The notes: a model not told the origin generated them from the letters alone. A DNA stretch of 64,000 bases from Escherichia phage iGC_PHA_EC001 (OR437326.1); one strand, 5' to 3'. Shown: positions 30,726 through 64,000, counted from the first letter of the stretch. Numbers and translations: made by a program.

Positions 30726-31277
30726 TTACTCTCCTTTGATTATTTTGTGATGGTCTACAGTTACGATATCTCGTTTACTCATCATAGAAATTATCTCATC
30801 AAAATGTAAGATTTTTCCGTGTGCATCCCAACCCACATCTAACATTTTACCATAAGCTTCATCAGGGAAAGATCCGTGGGAATGCCCGTGTAGCATGATT
30901 GATCCACGACCTTGTTTATTCCAGGAGGCTATAGGGTAATGGCTTAAGACGAAGAACAGCTTCTGATATTTCACTTCGTCATAATACACCACTTCTCCAT
31001 ACTCTGCAAGCACTTCTCGGTGTTTGCTGTAATCATGGTTCCCAACACAATAAGTGATATCCCCTTGGAGGCGGGAAGCAATCTTACGGGTATCTTCTTC
31101 AGTCCCGAAACAGAAGTCACCCAAATGCCACATCTTGACACCTGGACTCGTAGCGCATTTATTCCATGCTTCGATCAGTGCTTCTGTCATGTGGTCCATA
31201 TCTTCCCACGGTCGATATTCAGGAGCAAACTCTCGTATACGTTTGTGCATAAAATGCAAATCACTTGTAATAAACAT
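30726..31277 (-). CDS. calcineurin-like metallophosphoesterase (putative RNA-end phosphatase/phosphodiesterase)
   Basis: motifs SDLHF, GDF, GNHD, HGHSH in order; operon-like with RNA ligase and kinase. Confidence 0.65.
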   Translation of the reverse strand: MFITSDLHFMHKRIREFAPEYRPWEDMDHMTEALIEAWNKCATSPGVKMWHLGDFCFGTEEDTRKIASRLQGDITYCVGNHDYSKHREVLAEYGEVVYYDEVKYQKLFFVLSHYPIASWNKQGRGSIMLHGHSHGSFPDEAYGKMLDVGWDAHGKILHFDEIISMMSKRDIVTVDHHKIIKGE

Positions 31278-54754: not shown

Positions 54755-55765
54755 ATGGCAGAAAGAGAGTATACAAAAGCTCCTGCCCCTAATTTAAACA
54801 GGGCATACAAATTATTAATTGGTTCTGCCACAAACACAATACAGAAGAGAACTAAGAACTCGGCATTTAAATCTACAGTAGATTTGGATACCAAGTTAGG
54901 GACAACAGAAAAATCCTCTTCTAATTTGTATTTGTTGCAAGACCATCAAATAACCTTCAGTATTAAGAAAGATAATAACAAAGATCCTAACCAAGCAGAG
55001 ATTGTAGTTTATAACCTTTCGGATGATACTGTTAACTATATAAACCGTGGTATCCGAAATAACTTGGCTGTTGCTTTAGCGGTAGGATACGAAGGTGAAG
55101 AGTTGGTTATGATCTTCAAAGGAACTATCCAGTGGGTTAGTGATACTTTTGACTCGGTAGACAGGAAAACCACTTTACACTGTTTGGATGGCGGTATTAA
55201 CATTGCAGAAGCAAGAACAAGCCGCAGTTATCCAAAAGGAACTAAAATCAAACGTGTTGTGACAGATTTGGTAAAGGATTTAGGAACTACAGAAGGTAAT
55301 ATACACGTAGATAATGATCAAACCTTATCTTCAGCAACAGCTATGTGTGGAAACACTTCACATTACCTAGAACATATTTGTAAAAGTATTGATCACAATG
55401 TGTCAATACAAGATGGGTCTGTTTATGTCACTCCTCGTTCACAAATGTCTAGTGCACGTAGCGCCTATATTAGCCCTGAAACTGGTCTGATAGGAAGTCC
55501 AGAACCATTCCACAACGATATAAAACCTACTAAAAAAGTTACCAAATCCTCTAAGAAGGCAAAGAAACCTACAGATGGTGTTAAATTCAAATGCCAAATG
55601 AATGGTGCAATATTACCAGAAAAAACAATCTGGTTAAAAAGCCGAGATTATGATGGTCCATTTAAAGTAGTTTCTGTTTCTCACAACGGAGATAAAGAAG
55701 GTAAAGAGTGGGTTACTGAAGTGGAATGTGTATCCGTGTCTGAAATAATGACTAAGGAGAAATAA
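54755..55765 (+). CDS. putative baseplate hub protein
   Basis: 336 aa upstream of spike-like gene; synteny only. Confidence 0.45.
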   Translation: MAEREYTKAPAPNLNRAYKLLIGSATNTIQKRTKNSAFKSTVDLDTKLGTTEKSSSNLYLLQDHQITFSIKKDNNKDPNQAEIVVYNLSDDTVNYINRGIRNNLAVALAVGYEGEELVMIFKGTIQWVSDTFDSVDRKTTLHCLDGGINIAEARTSRSYPKGTKIKRVVTDLVKDLGTTEGNIHVDNDQTLSSATAMCGNTSHYLEHICKSIDHNVSIQDGSVYVTPRSQMSSARSAYISPETGLIGSPEPFHNDIKPTKKVTKSSKKAKKPTDGVKFKCQMNGAILPEKTIWLKSRDYDGPFKVVSVSHNGDKEGKEWVTEVECVSVSEIMTKEK

Positions 55766-56499
55766 TGGATGCATTGAATTTTGTCACAGCAATGCGTGGC
55801 TTAATGACAGAACAATTAGCAGAAGTCCATACAGCCTTGCCAGTCCGTGTGACTGGCGTTAATTATGGTGCTAAAACTGTCACCTTAGAATCTATTGTTA
55901 AAAACACACGATCTAGTGAAGATGAAATAGATTATCCTACTTTTGAAGATGTTCCTTTTATGGTTAATGGTGGTGGGACAGGAAGAATCTCATTCCCTAT
56001 TAAAGCTGGCGATTTAGGAACTGTTATATTTTCTGAAAGAGATCCTTCTAATGCACTGCAAACTAGTGGAGAAACCTCTTCATCATCCACTTTTATGCAG
56101 CCTTGTGGATTATACCCTATTTGTTTTATTCCCAAAATAGCTACAGGAACAGATTCAACAGAAGCTGTAGATTCTGAAAAGGTAGTTATTTCTAATAACA
56201 AAAACACGTACGCTTCTTTCGACCCTACAGGTAATATTTCAATATGGAATAGTCAAGGGATGAAAATAGATATTACTACCTCTGGTATTACTATTACAGA
56301 TGGCACAGGGACTTTGGATCTAAAAGGTGGTAATTTAACTTTCAAAGGCGGCGTGGCAGATATCAATGGTCTTAAAATAGATCAGAACGGTTTGATGACA
56401 GATGGTAATGGCATCGGATTCCATACTCACACGCACACGGTTCGTAACATTCAGAGCGGTAGCTCAAGTGCCGAGTCCTTAAAACCAACAGGAGCCTAA
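55765..56499 (+). CDS. putative baseplate spike (gpV/gp5-like) with C-terminal HTHTHT motif
   Basis: C-terminal GIGFHTHTHTV resembles metal-binding HxH repeats at spike tips; precedes gpW/gp25-like gene. Confidence 0.5.
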   Translation: MDALNFVTAMRGLMTEQLAEVHTALPVRVTGVNYGAKTVTLESIVKNTRSSEDEIDYPTFEDVPFMVNGGGTGRISFPIKAGDLGTVIFSERDPSNALQTSGETSSSSTFMQPCGLYPICFIPKIATGTDSTEAVDSEKVVISNNKNTYASFDPTGNISIWNSQGMKIDITTSGITITDGTGTLDLKGGNLTFKGGVADINGLKIDQNGLMTDGNGIGFHTHTHTVRNIQSGSSSAESLKPTGA

Positions 56500-56500
56500 C

Positions 56501-57127
56501 ATGGGAATCCCTTTTGACTTAAAACTTGGACCAAACAACGACCTCATCATGGATGATGGGGATTTGGTCCTCACTACAACCAGAACAGAAATTGCAGCAC
56601 AAACTCTTGGGATAACTCTGAACACGTATCGTGGGGAGTGGTTTTTAAATACTAACTTCGGTGTTCCTTACTTACAAGAGATTATTGGTGTTGCCAGAAA
56701 GAAAGATATTGTAGACAGAATATTTTTAGCAGAGATTGCCAAAAACGTTTACATAGATACAATAAACAGTTATAAATCTGCTTATGACATGGACCAACGT
56801 TATTATTCAATGACAGTTATGGTCACAGTTGGAGCAGATACAGTAACATCTATATTCAATACTCAACCTTCTGAAGAGTTTATTTACCCTGAAGCTGGTG
56901 AAGACAATGCAGCGATCATTTGTGAAGCTTACAGTATTGTTGAGAATTCGAATAGACTTTATCGCTTTATCAACTTTGTTGGTTTGCCACGTGATACCTA
57001 CTCTACTTGGTGGAATGAATGGTCTACAGAGTCAGCAGTGGAAAGAATCATGGTTAACGAAAAAGGTGATGCATTAGCTACAAACAATGACTTCGGTATA
57101 ACAGCTATGACAGGAGTAGAAGAGTAA
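56501..57127 (+). CDS. baseplate wedge protein (GPW/gp25-like)
   Basis: N-terminal MGIPFDLKLGPNNDLIMDDGDLVLTTTRTEIAAQTLGITLNTYRGEWFLNTNFGVPY matches GPW/gp25 pattern. Confidence 0.55.
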   Translation: MGIPFDLKLGPNNDLIMDDGDLVLTTTRTEIAAQTLGITLNTYRGEWFLNTNFGVPYLQEIIGVARKKDIVDRIFLAEIAKNVYIDTINSYKSAYDMDQRYYSMTVMVTVGADTVTSIFNTQPSEEFIYPEAGEDNAAIICEAYSIVENSNRLYRFINFVGLPRDTYSTWWNEWSTESAVERIMVNEKGDALATNNDFGITAMTGVEE

Positions 57128-57600
57128 TGGCAGATTTAACTACGATCAAAATTTCTGATCTTACACAAACAACCTCTGTGTCTGATACAGATTTCTTTGT
57201 AACAGATCAGGCTGGAATAACAAAGAAAACTTCTTTGAAAGTGCTGTTGAGTGGTGCAGGGGTAACTAGAAACCGTCTGAATGCACGGGGAACAGTAACT
57301 AGCACCTTGGCATTAGATATTAGTTCAGCAGAATATTTTTCTGCAACTTTATCTTCTGCAACGTGCACAATTAGTTTTACTAATATTCCAGTAGCAACAA
57401 ATGCAGTTTTAAACTTTACTTTAGCTTTGCGTCAAGGAAGTGGTGCAAATAAAGTCGTATGGCCTTCTTCTGTAAAATGGAGTTTTGGTCGTTCCCCAGT
57501 TTTGAGTTATCGTCAAGGTGCAACAGACACTTTTGAGTTTATCAGTTATGATAATGGAGCAACTTGGACAGGTAGCTTAGTTTTAGCAGGAGTTATTTAA
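57127..57600 (+). CDS. putative baseplate/tail protein
   Basis: 157 aa, ATGA start/stop overlaps with neighbours. Confidence 0.45.
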   Translation: MADLTTIKISDLTQTTSVSDTDFFVTDQAGITKKTSLKVLLSGAGVTRNRLNARGTVTSTLALDISSAEYFSATLSSATCTISFTNIPVATNAVLNFTLALRQGSGANKVVWPSSVKWSFGRSPVLSYRQGATDTFEFISYDNGATWTGSLVLAGVI

Positions 57601-60476
57601 TGTCAAGAGTTAAGCACAATATTGACAACACGTTTCAGTTGATTGAAGGGTTGGTTCAGTTTTTGGAAAGAAATACTGGGCTTACCATAGATCCTACGGT
57701 TCAGCATTACATTATCAACCCACAAAACGTATTGGCGAACAACAGACACTTTATTAACTGGACAGCGCAGGAAGGGCAACCAAACGGTGACGCTACTACC
57801 GAAGGTCAATCTGTGCTTATCACTGGTTTTGCTTATGCATATTTGGCTACAGGGGATAAAAAATATCTTGAATCTGCCGAGAAGTATTGGCAAGCCTATA
57901 TAGATCACTTCTTCGGGGGCCAACCTATTCCTGATCCTCCAGCTAAATATCGTCCCAACTGGATCATCAATGGTAAAGAACCACGTTTAGCACATTACCC
58001 TCTCACAGATGATGGGTATCCTACGCACGGCGGGTTCAAAGGTAGCATGATGACTTGGATTAACGGAAGGACTGTTATTCCTAAAGGTGCGCCACATTGG
58101 GGAGAATACTTAGATAAAGCTTGGTTTGCTTTCAATGGTAATCTTGGTTGGAACTCTGTTAACGCAACAGTGTATGCAACTAACCCAGATGGTTCAACCA
58201 ACTGGAAAGAATATGGAGATCAGTGGGACGTTGAATGGATTATAGATCGTCTAGGACGTAAAGTTGATTGGGATGGTAATATTTTATCCACTGGGCATAG
58301 CTTTGCAGAATATGGAACAGTGCAACTTAAAAACGCTTCTGTGAACGGTGACTATAAATTCAACTACGCTACATGCAACCCTGTAGAACACGGTGGATAT
58401 CTGCTTAAGCGTAATGAGATGTGGCATAACCGTCCTGTAAACGTTCCGGTAGAGTTAGGTTATCAAGACAATGCTTCCGATGCTGAAACGTGGTGGTGTG
58501 ATGCAAACTACTTGATGTATCAGATCACAGGAGAGAGAAAATACTGGCTTTGCTGGCAATCTTCTTTATTGTTGTGTCAAGACTACTCAAACATCGATAT
58601 GTTTGATAAATTCTTCCGTAGATCTACGACAGCAATAATTCCTTTTACAGATGGTATCTCGTATGATTACTCATACCCATCTACAGCAATACCTAAATAT
58701 TCTCGTGACGAATTAGGATACACAGTAATTCGCCAAGATGTTTCAGCACAAACAACTCTAGAACAACAGGCAGTTTGGTTCAGAGTAGATCAGAATTCAA
58801 AACTGCGTATTGAGTTTCAAGGTGTAGATGATGCAGGGGAAGGTGTTCTTTTCCGTCCAGAGCTAGAATTAAGCAAAACTAAGAGTGAAACAGACACAGT
58901 GACATATCGTTGTGGCTTACCTCTTGGTGCAGCTAATATGACTAAGATGGATATACCTTTATCTAGTTTTATGCGCACCGAACCTCCTGGAGGTGGTGTA
59001 TATATTATTGCTGAACCCAGAATTATTGTTGACTGGGGAAGCAATACTGTGATACAATATAAATATGCAACTGGTATTGCTGGGACAAATAGTGATCAGA
59101 TAGTTTCTGCTAATATGGATTCAGATGGTGGTTTTACTGTTGGGTTTTGGTTAACACCAACTAAAACAGCCAATTTAAAATCTATTACGTATCGTTCATA
59201 CGCAGATGATTTTAACATCACTATTACGGATTCCGCAGGTTGGAGATGGTGGGCCATGTTAGAAAAAACAAATTCTGCATGGGTTACTAAAGCTTTAAGT
59301 CCTGCCGATTTCAAATTAAGTACTTGGCAACCTAATCACGAAGACACAGAGGCAAAACCTTCGTCAATAAACCTGACTGCTGTTGATCAGATCAATATTG
59401 CATTGGATTCTGAACCTGCAAATGGCTTGACAGGGGCAATCGACTTTTATTGCGTTAACGATATCCCATCTTTGTATTCTTCAGCCGCTGGCGATGATTA
59501 CACAATGTATTTCAGGGTTACAGTTTCATCTGAAAATCCTTATACAGCAAAACTTGGAGATTGTACAATACTGGACTACAAACTTGACAGTTTGAATTAT
59601 ACTCCAGGAATCATTCCATTTTCCAATATTAGTGATCCTAACACAGCATTATATGACGGTTGGCGTGGTATTCCTTACCCAGGTTATCAATACCCATCCT
59701 TATATTGTTTTAAAGGGAGAGATATTGACTGGGTTCGTATGAACAACAGTATAGACTTTTTATATGATTCACAAATGTGGTTTTATAATAAGTTTGCCCC
59801 TGTAATGCCTGGGCCAATGGCACAAGCTTATGTTTGGGATCGTTGGGATGCTCATAAATATGGAAACAAAAATGAGTTCACAATGTATCATTGGAACGAT
59901 AAAGCTTGGGATGGTTATGAAGCACGAGCATTCTTCTGTGCGTGTCATACGGTATACGAACTAAAGCGACGAGGAGCCGAAGTTCCTGAAAAACTTTTAA
60001 CAGTTTGTAAAAACTGGATCAACTACCTGAAGTGGTTCCAAGATAACAACGAAGGAAGAACACCAACAATATTTTATCCCAACGGAGAAGTGGCTGCGCC
60101 TGTAGATGACTTTACAAGTCACATGTCTGCGCTCTTTATGGCGGGATGTGCTATAATGGGGATGGCTGGATATGATTCAGAAATTCCTAACATTAAAATA
60201 GTAGCAGACCGCTGTTTTGAACTTATTCAGGAAAACTATATTGTTCTTGGTCCTAATCACGTTATGAATGGTTGTTGGAGTGCTGCTCCTAGACCAGACA
60301 GTGATAACGGAGTCTTCTTTGGCTTCCACGCTGGAGAGTTGTTACGTGGTTTTGGGTTGTATGCTTTATACAAAAAACTTAATCCCCAAAATGCATTACC
60401 TGTTTTGGATTCGAGCAATATTCCTGCACTTACTGTTTTGACAATGGCAAACATTAGTGTGGACGTTACCGAGTAA
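57600..60476 (+). CDS. large tail/baseplate structural protein (958 aa)
   Basis: long ORF in baseplate-fibre region; Trp/Tyr-rich, no motif assigned. Confidence 0.5.
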   Translation: MSRVKHNIDNTFQLIEGLVQFLERNTGLTIDPTVQHYIINPQNVLANNRHFINWTAQEGQPNGDATTEGQSVLITGFAYAYLATGDKKYLESAEKYWQAYIDHFFGGQPIPDPPAKYRPNWIINGKEPRLAHYPLTDDGYPTHGGFKGSMMTWINGRTVIPKGAPHWGEYLDKAWFAFNGNLGWNSVNATVYATNPDGSTNWKEYGDQWDVEWIIDRLGRKVDWDGNILSTGHSFAEYGTVQLKNASVNGDYKFNYATCNPVEHGGYLLKRNEMWHNRPVNVPVELGYQDNASDAETWWCDANYLMYQITGERKYWLCWQSSLLLCQDYSNIDMFDKFFRRSTTAIIPFTDGISYDYSYPSTAIPKYSRDELGYTVIRQDVSAQTTLEQQAVWFRVDQNSKLRIEFQGVDDAGEGVLFRPELELSKTKSETDTVTYRCGLPLGAANMTKMDIPLSSFMRTEPPGGGVYIIAEPRIIVDWGSNTVIQYKYATGIAGTNSDQIVSANMDSDGGFTVGFWLTPTKTANLKSITYRSYADDFNITITDSAGWRWWAMLEKTNSAWVTKALSPADFKLSTWQPNHEDTEAKPSSINLTAVDQINIALDSEPANGLTGAIDFYCVNDIPSLYSSAAGDDYTMYFRVTVSSENPYTAKLGDCTILDYKLDSLNYTPGIIPFSNISDPNTALYDGWRGIPYPGYQYPSLYCFKGRDIDWVRMNNSIDFLYDSQMWFYNKFAPVMPGPMAQAYVWDRWDAHKYGNKNEFTMYHWNDKAWDGYEARAFFCACHTVYELKRRGAEVPEKLLTVCKNWINYLKWFQDNNEGRTPTIFYPNGEVAAPVDDFTSHMSALFMAGCAIMGMAGYDSEIPNIKIVADRCFELIQENYIVLGPNHVMNGCWSAAPRPDSDNGVFFGFHAGELLRGFGLYALYKKLNPQNALPVLDSSNIPALTVLTMANISVDVTE

Positions 60477-60484
60477 GGGGTAAA

Positions 60485-62638
60485 ATGAAACAAGCTATAT
60501 TTACTGTCACGCGAGACAAGAGAGTAAATGCGAGTTCATTTAACTACACGACTGTTGACGGAACAGCAGTCGCTGGTAGAGATTATATTGCAAAATCGGG
60601 AACACTTGTGTTCCCTGATGATGCTGATTCTGCTACTATTGTGGTTGAAGTATTTGAACGACCAAAGAACTCAATAGATCTTAACTTCTCCCTCCAAGTT
60701 TCAGGGATTAGTCAAAATAACATGATGGTTGAAACAACCATCAATTGTATTATAACTACTATCCAAGAAAATACTACTCCAATAACTTGGACTACAAAAG
60801 ACGTTAAAATGTTCTCTCCTATGTATTGGACAATAGATTCTCAAGCAACGGAAAGTTGTTCTATTGTATCTCATGGAGGCTCTTTTACTGCAAGATTTGT
60901 AAACAGAACAACAGCAGGTTTGGCAGGGGTTATCTGGAGCACAGTTGACAAATATGACCATAAAGGTGTTGGGTATTTACCCCACACAGATTTAAGTTCA
61001 GAGAAACTTTGGTTTAAAATGGAAATTAGTCAAAACATGCCAGGTTTTAAAGAAGAACCTTTGGTGCCGACTTTGACTGTAACTCTCCTGGATAAAAGTG
61101 TTCATTATGTCAGTTTAGGATTCTATGCTTCAGATATTTCAGAAGATGGTAAAACAGCCACAATCAAGCTAGATTTTGGTAATATCTTTTCTGGCCCTAA
61201 TAATGATATTCCTTTGGATATGAGTGCCGTAGACAATATTTTCTTCTCTTTGATTACAGCAAGGTATGAAGAAATAGAGGAGATTGTACCTATTGATAGT
61301 CAAGAGGCTTGGTTTACTTTCACTCTTCTTGAACCTACTTCTGGTTACAGTATGATGAAAGTCAGCAACCTTGTCCAGCCTGAACATGATATTCGCATGT
61401 GCACATCTTATGATGATATGTATAACCTGACTCCAGAGAGAGTTATTTATAATACATATGCACTAGGTTATCGTGGGATGATTAACCATTATAACGGAAT
61501 GTCTCACTATTATGAGTTCTCATGGAATGGAACATCTTGGGCTTTAAATAAATCTGTTTTCCTGAATCCGGCTACAGAAGCTTGGCTTAACAGCTTCCAT
61601 TCTATAGCAAACGAGAAGGGCTACACAATAATGAACTCTTTAAGTTTTGAATTGATGAGCACAGTTTGTCCTGTAGAATGGGTCCAGCATGATTGGAACG
61701 ATGCTCTTGCAGCAACAGGGTATAAACCTCCTAGTTATGTGTTGTCTCCAACTATTGACGAAGGTATGGAATATTTGCAAAATGTTATTAATAAAATAGC
61801 ATCTATTTCGCAAGCTAATAATATTCCAGTTGTCATTCAAATTGGTGAGCCTTGGTGGTGGTATAATACAGCAAGTAAAATGCCTTGCATATATGATTAC
61901 ACTACCAAACTGGCATTCAACACAGAAACAGGTTTATTTGCACAAGATGCAGGAACAATAGATAATTATAAAACAGGAACGCCGTTTGACGAATACTATG
62001 CATTTTTGTCTCGTAAACTAGGATTAAGAGTTACAAAGTTTGCAACAGACACTAGAGCAACCTATCCAGGAGCTAAAGTAACATTGCTTCCGTTCTTACC
62101 GTCAATTATTGGCAACGGTTTGATGGAGAAAGTTAACTTTCCGTCTGATTACTACATTCCTGAAACTTTTGATTTTTACTGTTCAGAGTGTTACGACTGG
62201 CTTCTGGAAGGTAAAATGATGAAAGCATTCGATGCAATTACCATACCACATGAAAAATTAGGTTTTGAATATTCTGATATTCACTATCTTTCGGGTTTTG
62301 TTCCAGATGCTACTCTTGCACCTTTGTATGGCTTCGATCCTGAATCAAACTACCGCACGTATCTTTGGAAAATGATTATAGGTAATATAGTGTTGAACGC
62401 CAATAAGTTCAATGGGCTTACACAATATATATGGGCCTATCCTCAAATAATGCATGATTCCATCACGGTAGTTAATTCTCAATCCCAAGTTTTCTATATG
62501 GGTAATGTGCCTTTGAATTGTTATTTGCAAGATATCACTCTTAAACAAGCAAATGTTGAGATTGCTACCATAAGTGGAATTACATTAGCTACTAAATCTG
62601 GAGAAGATTTAGTAACAACACAAAAATTTTATATATAG
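60485..62638 (+). CDS. tail protein with N-terminal Calx-beta-like domain
   Basis: FNYTTVDGTAVAGRDYIAKSGTLVFPDDADSATIVVEVFE resembles Calx-beta consensus. Confidence 0.5.
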   Translation: MKQAIFTVTRDKRVNASSFNYTTVDGTAVAGRDYIAKSGTLVFPDDADSATIVVEVFERPKNSIDLNFSLQVSGISQNNMMVETTINCIITTIQENTTPITWTTKDVKMFSPMYWTIDSQATESCSIVSHGGSFTARFVNRTTAGLAGVIWSTVDKYDHKGVGYLPHTDLSSEKLWFKMEISQNMPGFKEEPLVPTLTVTLLDKSVHYVSLGFYASDISEDGKTATIKLDFGNIFSGPNNDIPLDMSAVDNIFFSLITARYEEIEEIVPIDSQEAWFTFTLLEPTSGYSMMKVSNLVQPEHDIRMCTSYDDMYNLTPERVIYNTYALGYRGMINHYNGMSHYYEFSWNGTSWALNKSVFLNPATEAWLNSFHSIANEKGYTIMNSLSFELMSTVCPVEWVQHDWNDALAATGYKPPSYVLSPTIDEGMEYLQNVINKIASISQANNIPVVIQIGEPWWWYNTASKMPCIYDYTTKLAFNTETGLFAQDAGTIDNYKTGTPFDEYYAFLSRKLGLRVTKFATDTRATYPGAKVTLLPFLPSIIGNGLMEKVNFPSDYYIPETFDFYCSECYDWLLEGKMMKAFDAITIPHEKLGFEYSDIHYLSGFVPDATLAPLYGFDPESNYRTYLWKMIIGNIVLNANKFNGLTQYIWAYPQIMHDSITVVNSQSQVFYMGNVPLNCYLQDITLKQANVEIATISGITLATKSGEDLVTTQKFYI

Positions 62639-62646
62639 GAGTAAAA

Positions 62647-64000
62647 ATGTCAACTACAATTACTAATTTACCCGAAACATCAAAAGTTAATGATTCTGAT
62701 TACCTGGTTTTAGACCAACCTGATAAGACTGTTAAAAGCACAGTTTCCAACTTTCTTACTGACACTGGGGTGGTTTTAGCCACCCAGTTGAAAGATACAG
62801 ATGGAGCAGATTTAATACAATCCTCAAATGGTAATACTGTTCAGGAAGAGTTGAATAACAATCTTCTTAATGATCGTGAACAGTGGCGTCGTAGTCTTGC
62901 CGAGGCTGGGTTAACTCTTGTTGATGGTAGTTTTGAAGAAGGGGCTACAGTGGGCAGTGTAACTGATGCTGTCTGGTACATAGCGGGTGCTCAGTGCTAC
63001 ACATGGGGGTCTGGTTTCCCTAAAGATGTACCACCTAAATCAACCCCGACATCAACCGGTGGAGTAGGTGTAGGGGCGTGGATATCAGTTGGGGATGCAT
63101 CGCTGCGCAGCCAGCTACACAGCCCATCGCTACCAGGAACATCGCTAATCAAACACTCTGACGGCAAGACTGTTCAGCAGGAACTCAACAGCATTCTTTC
63201 CGTCCATTCGCGCGTTTTCAGCGTTGATGACCCGCAGTTTGCTGGCGGTGCAAAAGGTGACAGCAACGGCACGGCAGGTAATGGTACAGACGATACGGCA
63301 GCTATTTATGCTTGCTTCCAGGCTGCAATTGCTGCTGGTGGTGGGAAGATTGTCTTCTCCCCTGGTAAGATATATCGGACGACATACACCGTCTTATACG
63401 GCAGCAACATGGTTATCGATATGCAGGGAGCGTCAATTTTCTTTGATGTCAAGCCGAATGACGGCTCTGTGTTCATGCCAGACTCCTTCCAGTCTTACAC
63501 CAAATTCACGACCGATGTGATTTTTATGAACGGCCAGATTAACGGCAGAACCGGTGCCGGTAACGGTATCGGTGCTAACCGTGCTCGCCGCCTCACATTG
63601 TTTAACATTGGTAGTAAATATCTACATTGGCACCTGTTTGACGGTGCTGGCGCACAGCAGGTTAAAATCATTAATTGCTGGTGTGAGGGGACTAACTCTA
63701 CTCCTTTCCAGGTTGATAACGCCACTTATGATAAGGCATCGTGGGGTATAGACGCATCGGGAAATGTACTTCCCATATCATTCGACGCAACAGGGGTCGG
63801 AGGATGGTCTAACTGTCGTGACGTGCTGATTATGGGATGCACTGTAAGGAATGCCCTTTATTCATGTGTGCATATTCATAATACCAATAACCAAAATATT
63901 CAGGTTATTAACTGTCATTTTGAAAATTCTAAGGCAGGTGTCTTTGCAGATAACAACGCAACATTTATAACCACTAATACATTAATTCAGGGGTGTACCT
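62647..64000 (+). CDS. tailspike/tail fibre protein with pectate-lyase-like beta-helix (partial, runs off window end)
   Basis: RBS ATAGGAGTAAAA; frame open from 62647 to window end; NGTAGNGTDDTAAIYACFQAAIAAGGGKIVF resembles pectin-lyase-fold tailspike motif. Confidence 0.6.
   Translation, partial: MSTTITNLPETSKVNDSDYLVLDQPDKTVKSTVSNFLTDTGVVLATQLKDTDGADLIQSSNGNTVQEELNNNLLNDREQWRRSLAEAGLTLVDGSFEEGATVGSVTDAVWYIAGAQCYTWGSGFPKDVPPKSTPTSTGGVGVGAWISVGDASLRSQLHSPSLPGTSLIKHSDGKTVQQELNSILSVHSRVFSVDDPQFAGGAKGDSNGTAGNGTDDTAAIYACFQAAIAAGGGKIVFSPGKIYRTTYTVLYGSNMVIDMQGASIFFDVKPNDGSVFMPDSFQSYTKFTTDVIFMNGQINGRTGAGNGIGANRARRLTLFNIGSKYLHWHLFDGAGAQQVKIINCWCEGTNSTPFQVDNATYDKASWGIDASGNVLPISFDATGVGGWSNCRDVLIMGCTVRNALYSCVHIHNTNNQNIQVINCHFENSKAGVFADNNATFITTNTLIQGCT

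Follow-up and report, generated by a model that had tools for sequence, protein, structure and literature searches.

Phage N4, a podovirus, carries a receptor-binding collar made of gp64 and gp65 (PMC13434306), whose heterodimers form a six-fold ring around the tail tube. Maffei et al. described a predicted glycan-deacetylase domain shared by N4 Gp64 and the lateral tail fibre of Vequintavirinae and relatives (PMC8594841), and according to Sellner et al., N4, Vequintavirinae and phi92-like phages all depend on wecB and nfrB and hence on the NGR glycan (PMC8669472). For phi92, a cryo-electron microscopy (cryo-EM) study left the "arm-like scaffold" of the L-shaped fibre I unassigned and does not mention gp141 or gp142 (PMC13450770). 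Here we address the orthologues of these two proteins in a stretch of 64,000 nucleotides from Escherichia phage iGC_PHA_EC001 (OR437326.1), hereafter called the window, and in particular the way in which a 717-amino acid (aa) receptor-binding-type protein, the orthologue of phi92 gp142 and rV5 gp034, may be attached to the baseplate.

The interval 55765-62638 of the window shares 98.3-98.9% nucleotide (nt) identity with many Phapecoctavirus genomes (phAPEC8-like, Stephanstirmvirinae) and 60-80% with phi92-like and rV5-like phages. Its gene order corresponds one for one to that of phi92 genes 138-143, with protein identities of 72.5% for the spike, 73% for gp139, 83% for gp140, 83% for gp141 and 76.5% for gp142. 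The interval encodes the centre and part of the periphery of a phAPEC8-like myophage baseplate, a gene set that is unremarkable for E. coli phages of this kind. The two features that a first-pass annotation of this DNA had singled out, a histidine repeat on the central spike and a Calx-beta-like domain on the 717-aa protein, bring nothing new, as the spike orthologue has been solved and one GenBank record already names the gene "Calx-beta domain protein". The potential importance lies instead in the attachment mode of the 717-aa protein.

We propose that the Calx-beta head of this protein is an incomplete, six-strand sandwich (strands B-G) that would be completed in trans by the last ~18 residues of a partner. 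The partner would supply strands A/A' and a conserved Glu, and would be the 958-aa tail protein encoded directly upstream in the window and a small wedge subunit in rV5-like phages. The split domain would therefore be a portable plug and socket that sets the place of the glycan-targeting module on the baseplate. The picture as a whole, which comprises a central spike, an NGR-type module, a trans-completed Calx-beta connector and a C-terminal tailspike tag, is one that we regard as fairly probable. The features of the carrier and the receptor-binding-type protein are as follows.

57600..60476, plus strand: 958-aa tail protein, phi92 gp141 orthologue, proposed carrier or scaffold (phrog_2871, E 0)
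60378..60473, plus strand: C-terminal extension of the 958-aa protein, residues 927-958 (homologues without a Calx-beta gene downstream end ~30 residues sooner)
60420-60473, plus strand: last 18 residues of the 958-aa protein, IPALTVLTMANISVDVTE, proposed donated strands A/A' (fit to the canonical A/A' profile)
60485..62638, plus strand: 717-aa receptor-binding-type protein, phi92 gp142 / rV5 gp034 orthologue (Pfam, AlphaFold2, Foldseek)
60485..60769, plus strand: incomplete Calx-beta sandwich, residues 1-95 (start of the Pfam match at profile position 24 of 119, AlphaFold2 strands)
60803..61360, plus strand: NCTSP_N beta-sandwich domain, residues 107-292 (PF23844, E 1.3e-15; N4 gp65 residues 51-114 and 343-416)
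61379..62458, plus strand: TIM barrel of the N4 gp64/gp65 type, residues 299-658 (PF23845, E 1.1e-78; PDB 9lc0_M, Gp64, E 1.8e-30)
62546..62635, plus strand: 30-residue C-terminal extension of the 717-aa protein, residues 688-717, ...ATKSGEDLVTTQKFYI (predicted local distance difference test, pLDDT, <50 for residues 695-717)

The Calx-beta head and the tail encoded upstream

The Calx-beta-like signature reported for the 717-aa protein by the first-pass annotation is genuine. It consists of TVDGTAVAGRDYIAKSGTLVFPDDADSATIVVEVFE at residues 22-57, within a match to PF03160 (residues 4-82, E 9.2e-11, 42.2 bits against a cut-off of 27) that is not due to chance, and in the PDB the head matches the CBD domains of Na/Ca exchangers (best E 1.3e-7). 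The accompanying remark that such domains are uncommon in phage tail proteins was overstated, since the domain is found in every Stephanstirmvirinae and Vequintavirus orthologue.

The Pfam match spans profile positions 24-104 of 119, and the phage domain aligns only from position 26 to a full-length hidden Markov model (HMM) built from 106 Calx-beta repeats of cellular proteins (consensus ...LSLSISDASVTEGGTLTFTVTRSG...). AlphaFold2 places only six strands in residues 1-95 (3-9, 17-25, 38-43, 49-56, 66-73 and 85-90), and all nine clusters of homologues formed at 90% identity begin alike, at strand B, with M-x-x-A-x-F-x-x-x-R. Neither the 717-aa head nor any of its homologues holds a complete seven-strand sandwich (A/A'-G) in one polypeptide. 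Because of the profile start, the six strands and the uniform start of the homologues, we conclude that strands A/A' and the conserved Glu following them lie outside the 717-aa polypeptide. In sequence and in the predicted fold of strands B-G, the head resembles exchanger CBD1 and CBD2 and the Calx-beta domain of integrin beta4; unlike the exchanger domains, the phage polypeptide is without strand A/A' and has most Ca2+ ligands replaced.

The protein encoded directly 5' of the Calx-beta gene always ends in a conserved strand-like tail, which is found on two types of carrier. Carriers of the 958-aa type have it in the window, in phi92 and in loci L003, L005, L009, L011, L012 and L016-19, and the ending IPALTVLTMANISVDVTE is the same in phi92 and three more Stephanstirmvirinae lineages. 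In rV5-like genomes the Calx-beta gene follows a small wedge subunit, which is non-homologous to the 958-aa protein and bears the tail itself (rV5 L002, L006, L007, L008, L010, L020-23 and L028), ending ...ILIYVDNISVDATE, ...TTIYCESITVNATRQEG, ...TTIYCDSISIDVTAEG, ...TLVKVSVLDTTVNFS or ...TTVWCESIVVDATIVTEA. The 958-aa homologues of rV5-type genomes (865 aa in rV5, 935 aa in L008) align to residues 3-927 and then stop. Tail-bearing wedge subunits are 223-230 aa long, versus 203-215 aa for those without a Calx-beta gene next to them, which end after ...Y(V/T)SD(E/D)EN... and have no tail. The latter set includes the window type, phi92 gp146, phiTE (PDB 9mjn), KPP-1 and 48 database clusters; wedge 1 in the phiTE structure shows no tail, and phiTE has no Calx-beta gene. 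Further, the amino acids of the tail peptide are conserved although its codons change synonymously, with NISVD(V/A)TE encoded by AACATTAGTGTGGACGTTACCGAG in the window and by AATATTTCTGTAGATGCAACAGAG in L006 (including Ser AGT versus TCT), and this conservation extends over lineages with 30-40% identity between their Calx-beta domains.

In all nine lineages, the head scored 1.1 to 6.0 bits higher against the full-domain HMM when its true tail was fused to it. The window sequence went from 67.0 to 73.0, a value reached by 0 of 290 background C-termini and by 1 of 500 shuffles. When the nine fused sequences were compared with canonical Calx-beta repeats by local hhalign, the alignment extended into the tail in register (127.5, compared with 123.2 without the tail) and placed VTE on the canonical v-E-g; the spacing from this Glu to the conserved strand-B Arg equals that of canonical domains. 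Column-permuted tails scored 123.1 +/- 0.6, with 1 of 200 reaching the true value, and reversed tails scored 123.3.

Tails were also compared where the partner gene has been lost. In two metagenomic rV5-like lineages, L027 (4690-4902) and L030 (4690-4913), the Calx-beta/TIM gene is deleted. The 212-nt gap of L027 encodes residues 538-589 of the lost protein at 71% identity, a remnant of 52 codons in frame and with a stop, and its wedge tail, TTTCCDPTSTDVTENG, is 53% identical to the intact L008 type versus 88% for the body; the wedge tail of L030 is degenerate. Over the lost-partner lineages, tail identity is 53-63% versus 88% for the body, with the losses at hydrophobic positions. For P0275, which has a degenerate tail, the absence of a Calx-beta gene was predicted beforehand and then found. 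Additionally, the connector appears to vanish where carrier and module are covalently linked: P0218, from an SU10-like podophage contig (L014 6691-11364), is a 1557-aa fusion of a 958-like protein with NCTSP_N and the TIM barrel, and lacks both the tail motif and a Calx-beta domain. The domain is also missing from the Acinetobacter prophage homologues, from N4 and from proteins with a Dit-like (DUF2460) domain before the module.

We propose that tag and cargo form a cassette that would move between carriers (wedge subunit or 958-aa protein) and could bear other cargos, such as glycoside hydrolase family 48 (GH48). In Erwinia phage pEa_SNUABM_56 (L024 5001-9622), the wedge carries ...GYIMTVSVEDITVDASE internally, followed by an ASH/TMEM131-like Ig domain and a GH5 cellulase, and the next gene starts MRQATFKTTL..., a strand-B-first Calx-beta head on GH48. 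This head keeps a DD..E.E acidic cluster, unlike its counterparts in E. coli phages. We hold the chances to be evenly balanced that rV5-, phi92- and phAPEC8-like phages mount an NGR-type receptor-binding enzyme via a split Calx-beta domain, with a mobile tag and cargo cassette and with a second tag, ...GEDL....Y, recruiting a tailspike.

Some related arrangements were seen in the same families. The Erwinia phage has two cellulase-family enzymes on one baseplate. A 223-aa wedge subunit ending GYIMTISDAVISMV (P0264/L029) has neither the motif nor a Calx-beta gene and seems to have arisen from the Erwinia-type fusion by deletion. The 958-like family also includes proteins of 1.4-1.66 thousand residues (P0207-P0225) fused to, for example, repeat or coiled regions and Gly_rich_2, and distal modules in general seem to be carried by this family.

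The putative glycan-targeting module

Pfam divides the 717-aa protein into Calx-beta (4-82), NCTSP_N (107-292) and TIM-barrel_NCTSP (299-658), of which the latter two went unrecognised in the first-pass annotation. Its sequence matches in the PDB are N4 Gp64 (9lc0_M, E 1.8e-30) and the N4 "non-contractile tail sheath" gp65. The AlphaFold2 model, based on 43 homologues, has a mean pLDDT of 90.8 and a predicted template modelling score of 0.87, with only residues 695-717 disordered. In Foldseek searches with this model, N4 gp64 ranked first (E 8.8e-21, template modelling (TM) score 0.64-0.65 on the target) and gp65 second, the N4 structures 9yf5_SA and 9lc0_M matching at E of about 1e-20. They were followed by "sandwich plus TIM barrel" enzymes of GH31, GH36, GH2 and GH50 (whole-chain TM score 0.23-0.27 on the query) and by Cwp19, also at a low TM score, and the TIM barrel obtained no CAZy family assignment. 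Over the 43-sequence alignment, D310, D311, E389, E455 (in QIGEPWWW) and D471 of the barrel are invariant and E568 is near-invariant.

By its domains, the 717-aa protein is this phage's copy of the N4 gp64/gp65-like "NGR-glycan" receptor-binding module, which rV5-like and phi92-like phages have in common with N4, and we infer the NGR glycan as its target. Because of this homology, the host-facing part is taken to be NCTSP_N plus the TIM barrel and not the Calx-beta domain; the two together would be the host-binding, probably glycan-processing part. The module shares with N4 gp64/gp65 (9LC0, 9YF4/5; PF23844, PF23845) the NCTSP_N sandwich, the TIM barrel, the invariant acidic and aromatic residues and the proposed target, NGR glycan / NfrA pathway. 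In contrast to the collar of heterodimers in N4, the window has a single protein on a contractile-tail baseplate, with an added N-terminal Calx-beta half-domain and without gp65 D3-D10.

The closest relatives, phi92 gp142 and rV5 gp034 (~43% identity for the latter), are orthologues with the same three domains and correspond to the "glycan deacetylase" fibre of Maffei 2021 (S5F Fig). The rV5-like phages differ in context, with the gene placed after those for the wedge and the tail peptide borne by the small wedge subunit. GenBank labels for the orthologues also include "non-contractile tail sheath", "capsid protein", "capsid and scaffold", "tail fiber" and "baseplate protein with EPS depolymerase activity". 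Names that refer to a sheath or a capsid are errors passed on between records; a contractile sheath (phrog_205, DUF3383) and a myophage baseplate are encoded in this genome, to which the "non-contractile" name does not apply.

Proposed strand complementation and its alternatives

The split connector would be a variant of a known principle, beta-strand complementation, and is plausible; literature searches on Calx-beta tail fibres and on strand complementation in baseplates found no description of it. As in chaperone-usher pili and virion beta-strand augmentation, an Ig-like sandwich is without an edge strand and a neighbour is proposed to supply it; the partner peptide here matches the missing strand and co-occurs with the acceptor. 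Pilins lack a C-terminal strand (G) and receive an N-terminal donor strand, whereas here the missing A/A' is N-terminal and the donor would be a C-terminal tail. Donor-strand systems have no homology to the phage connector, and the contact proposed here is deduced rather than observed. Judged from comparative genomics and profile matching, the interaction of tail and Calx-beta head leans towards the probable. For an AlphaFold2 model, the 30-aa tail was joined through a 26-aa Pro/Gly-rich linker from the tape measure to the full 717-aa protein; the outcome is weak, non-decisive support for tail-head pairing.

Several points weigh against the proposal. In the linker construct, modelled with no alignment depth for the tail, TVLTMAN (tail residues 17-23) forms a strand at a pLDDT of only ~50-60, and ISVDVTE and the linker stay below 50. 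The gain in profile score is modest outside the window, 0.02-0.3 of background tails scoring as high in other lineages, and with Pfam's own model, in a comparison with shuffled, reversed and foreign tails, fusion adds only about 1 bit, too little to stand on its own. Of 301 distinct open reading frames (ORFs) of 100 aa or more over all loci, only the 18 proteins upstream of a Calx-beta gene have the motif at a C-terminus, a count that is descriptive only, because the motif was defined after the sequences had been seen. The lineage counts are not independent events, because the lineages are related, and perhaps 4-6 independent contrasts remain. No natural unsplit fusion of wedge and Calx-beta was found among 64 matches. 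The PDB holds no solved complex of carrier and Calx-beta, the phi92 entry 21vq being without gp141 and gp142, and the text of the rV5 virion proteomics does not have gp34 among the proteins named as detected. As to the module, the conserved acids of the TIM barrel are compatible with an active site and prove nothing, and a need for the NGR glycan is documented in phi92-like and rV5-like phages but not in Phapecoctavirus.

The first-pass annotation had read the Calx-beta domain as a Ca2+-binding module for adhesion to the host surface. The Calx-beta match is true, some family members retain one or two acids at the position of the exchanger C-terminal DDD, and the Erwinia phage version retains its acidic cluster; nevertheless, a Ca2+-adhesin role is most likely wrong, and we consider it very improbable. 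The E-F-loop Ca2+ ligands of CALX and NCX1 CBD1, IDDDxFEEDE, align to FERPKNSIDL here, so that the ligand positions are taken by E57, R58, P59, S62 and L65, with a non-acidic consensus across the family, and the exchanger DDD aligns to IQE (I93, Q94, E95). Over the nine homologue clusters the ligand positions are not conserved as acids, the Asp of "TVDGTA" varies as well, and the phage domain has no acidic Ca2+ cluster of the exchanger CBD1 type. The strand with the first Glu ligand lies outside the 717-aa polypeptide. The domain occupies the N-terminus, the usual site of the virion anchor in tail fibres, is dispensable in homologues that are fused or otherwise anchored (P0218, Acinetobacter, N4), and travels with the partner-encoded peptide, not with host range. 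The Calx-beta domain of integrin beta4 is not known to bind Ca2+, and the phage domain would resemble it in having most ligands replaced.

The main rival to strand complementation holds that the shared tail is only a recombination scar, the cassette starting a few codons before the Calx-beta gene. All coupling evidence is adjacency-based, module boundaries within upstream genes are common in mosaic phages, and the weakness of the AlphaFold2 support suits a scar as well. A scar is at odds with the retention of the peptide as amino acids across divergent Calx-beta domains, with a tail that decays faster than the rest of the protein after loss of the partner gene, with the register of the tail profile on canonical strand A' and its conserved Glu, and with its absence exactly where the link is covalent (P0218); we judge it unlikely. 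Another explanation is that the 958-aa and 717-aa ORFs yield one polypeptide by frameshift or readthrough and thus a Calx-beta domain complete in cis, and the gene boundary does fall exactly in the A'-B loop, where direct fusion gives the canonical loop length. The sequence excludes such a fusion, leaving it a negligible probability: gene 2 is in the -1 frame, which is closed by TAG at 60455-60457, no slippery heptamer occurs between this TAG and TAA at 60474-60476, and readthrough of the TAA meets a TGA 9 nt on. Gene 2 also has its own AAGGGG Shine-Dalgarno sequence and ATG, and the junctions vary among lineages (an ATGA overlap in rV5, spacers of 1-12 nt elsewhere), yet all are split. A further reading, in which the conserved 3'-terminal part of the upstream gene acts as a nucleotide signal, for translational coupling or as context of the ribosome-binding site, would suit the stop and start codons, which in every lineage overlap or lie 8 nt apart. 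It does not fit, because of the synonymous turnover, with amino acids and not nucleotides conserved, and because of the Erwinia case, where the motif is internal and ~500 codons before the next start; moreover, ~18 codons far exceed a ribosome-binding site, and we find this explanation scarcely credible.

Other baseplate genes, the tailspike and implications

The remaining features of the interval and the tailspike gene that follows it are listed here.

55765..56499, plus strand: central baseplate spike, 244 aa (PF18352, PF21930, PDB 3pqi_A and 21vq_t, phi92 gene 138)
56422..56436, plus strand: HTHTH, His220/222/224 (alignment to the phi92 spike HTHTH)
56501..57127, plus strand: sheath initiator, 208 aa, phi92 gp139 orthologue (PDB 21vq_L, E 3.5e-101; other myophage sheath initiators)
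57127..57600, plus strand: small fibre-like protein, 157 aa, phi92 gp140 orthologue (phrog_9017 tail fiber protein, E 2.7e-68)
62647..64000, plus strand: 5' part of the tailspike gene, which continues past the window end (translation, BLASTP)

The small fibre-like protein has no PDB sequence match, and the 958-aa protein has neither a Pfam nor a PDB match. Genes for the sheath, tube, tape measure, Dit-like tube initiator, plug and hub lie 5' of the interval. The GC skew is negative over 1-34 kb and positive after, a switch near 34 kb that agrees with the orientation of the genes, which turns from the minus to the plus strand where the structural module begins.

The 244-aa protein is a contractile-tail spike, as the first-pass annotation had recognised. 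It has an OB-fold N-domain (PF18352, E 8e-11, residues 25-106), a beta-helical trimerisation domain (PF21930, E 8.5e-32, residues 140-216; PDB 3pqh_A, E 5.3e-45) and an apex at about residues 217-244, and in a phmmer search of the PDB its residues 1-243 matched 3pqi_A and chain t of the phi92 baseplate, 21vq, at E 5e-117. The string GIGFHTHTHTV, described as the end of the protein, is present but not terminal: HTHTH occupies residues 220-224, followed by T225 and V226, and 20 residues come after the His repeat. The motif is not due to chance, with 0.13 HxHxH expected and 2 found in window ORFs of at least 100 aa. The second copy, LHGHSHG (30876-30890, minus strand), belongs to a 183-aa protein (30726-31277) unrelated to the spike and presumably resembles a metallophosphoesterase-type motif.

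The proposed metal coordination by the His repeat is borne out by homology, as HTHTH aligns residue for residue with the solved phi92 spike. At the apex of the phi92 trimer, three HxH motifs hold an iron ion, and cryo-EM agrees in this with the earlier crystal structure (PMC13450770). Work on P2 gpV likewise found Fe coordinated by HxH at the apex, identified HxH as the sole universally conserved spike feature, and reported the apex to be dispensable in the laboratory (bioRxiv 10.1101/2023.02.25.529910). In HTHTH two HxH motifs overlap, and they are predicted to form the histidine cage that binds Fe at a trimeric apex; from the 72.5% identity to phi92 we infer that six His of the trimer would bind one Fe octahedrally. 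The trimer would be the membrane-piercing central spike, with the cage of His220/222/224 holding one Fe and stiffening the tip. A metal-binding tip is already textbook knowledge for this spike family. The spike shares OB fold, triple beta-helix and apex with the phi92 spike (3PQI, 3PQH, 21vq chain t) and P2 gpV, and likewise its place after the hub gene; it differs from phi92 only by substitutions, such as F for L before the His repeat and T for P after it, which give no hint of another function.

Residues 688-717 of the 717-aa protein are present only where a tailspike gene comes next, in the window, 3A1, PHB05 and phi92 (four with both; loci including L001 and L003), and are absent where it does not, in L005, L009, ESCO13 and Eryne (four with neither). 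The tailspikes share only their first ~52-61 residues, MSTTITNLPETSKVN.SDYLVLDQ.... In the window, the N-terminal ~52 residues are nearly identical to those of the phi92 endosialidase gp143 and the remainder differs; residues 1-61 are 95% identical to isolate 3A1 and residues 1-161 are 88% identical to phi92-like PHB05, and the rest matches neither. The G+C content of the region 62647-64000 reaches 0.424. The window tailspike looks like a mosaic, with a swapped receptor-binding part on a conserved anchor. Further, the 958-like P0129 (L015) ends ...VTQAGEDLGGYWYTM, of the ...GEDL....Y type, and the next protein has a tailspike-like N-terminus. Together with the co-occurrence of extension and tailspike, this suggests a chain from the 958-aa protein to the 717-aa protein to the tailspike, which we offer as a lead and not as a result. 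Residues 688-717 would possibly be a docking peptide or tag for the downstream tailspike, the extension playing the role of the tail for the tailspike encoded next; this step is weaker than that proposed for the Calx-beta head. For phi92 the analogy suggests the chain gp141-gp142-gp143. Neither phi92 gp142 nor rV5 gp034 is in any virion map, and phi92 fibres I and II are proximally unassigned.

If true, the proposal would explain how a conserved glycan module comes to stand at different baseplate positions in related phages. The arm of phi92 fibre I would be gp141-gp142 bearing the endosialidase gp143, a testable assignment for the 2026 cryo-EM densities. The split domain would also serve as a compact means of engineering receptor-binding proteins onto phages for therapy, with a rule for re-plugging them. 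Finally, the rule of a tag on the carrier and a head on the cargo would predict the branched fibre architecture of broad-host-range phages of the phi92/rV5 type from the genome alone.

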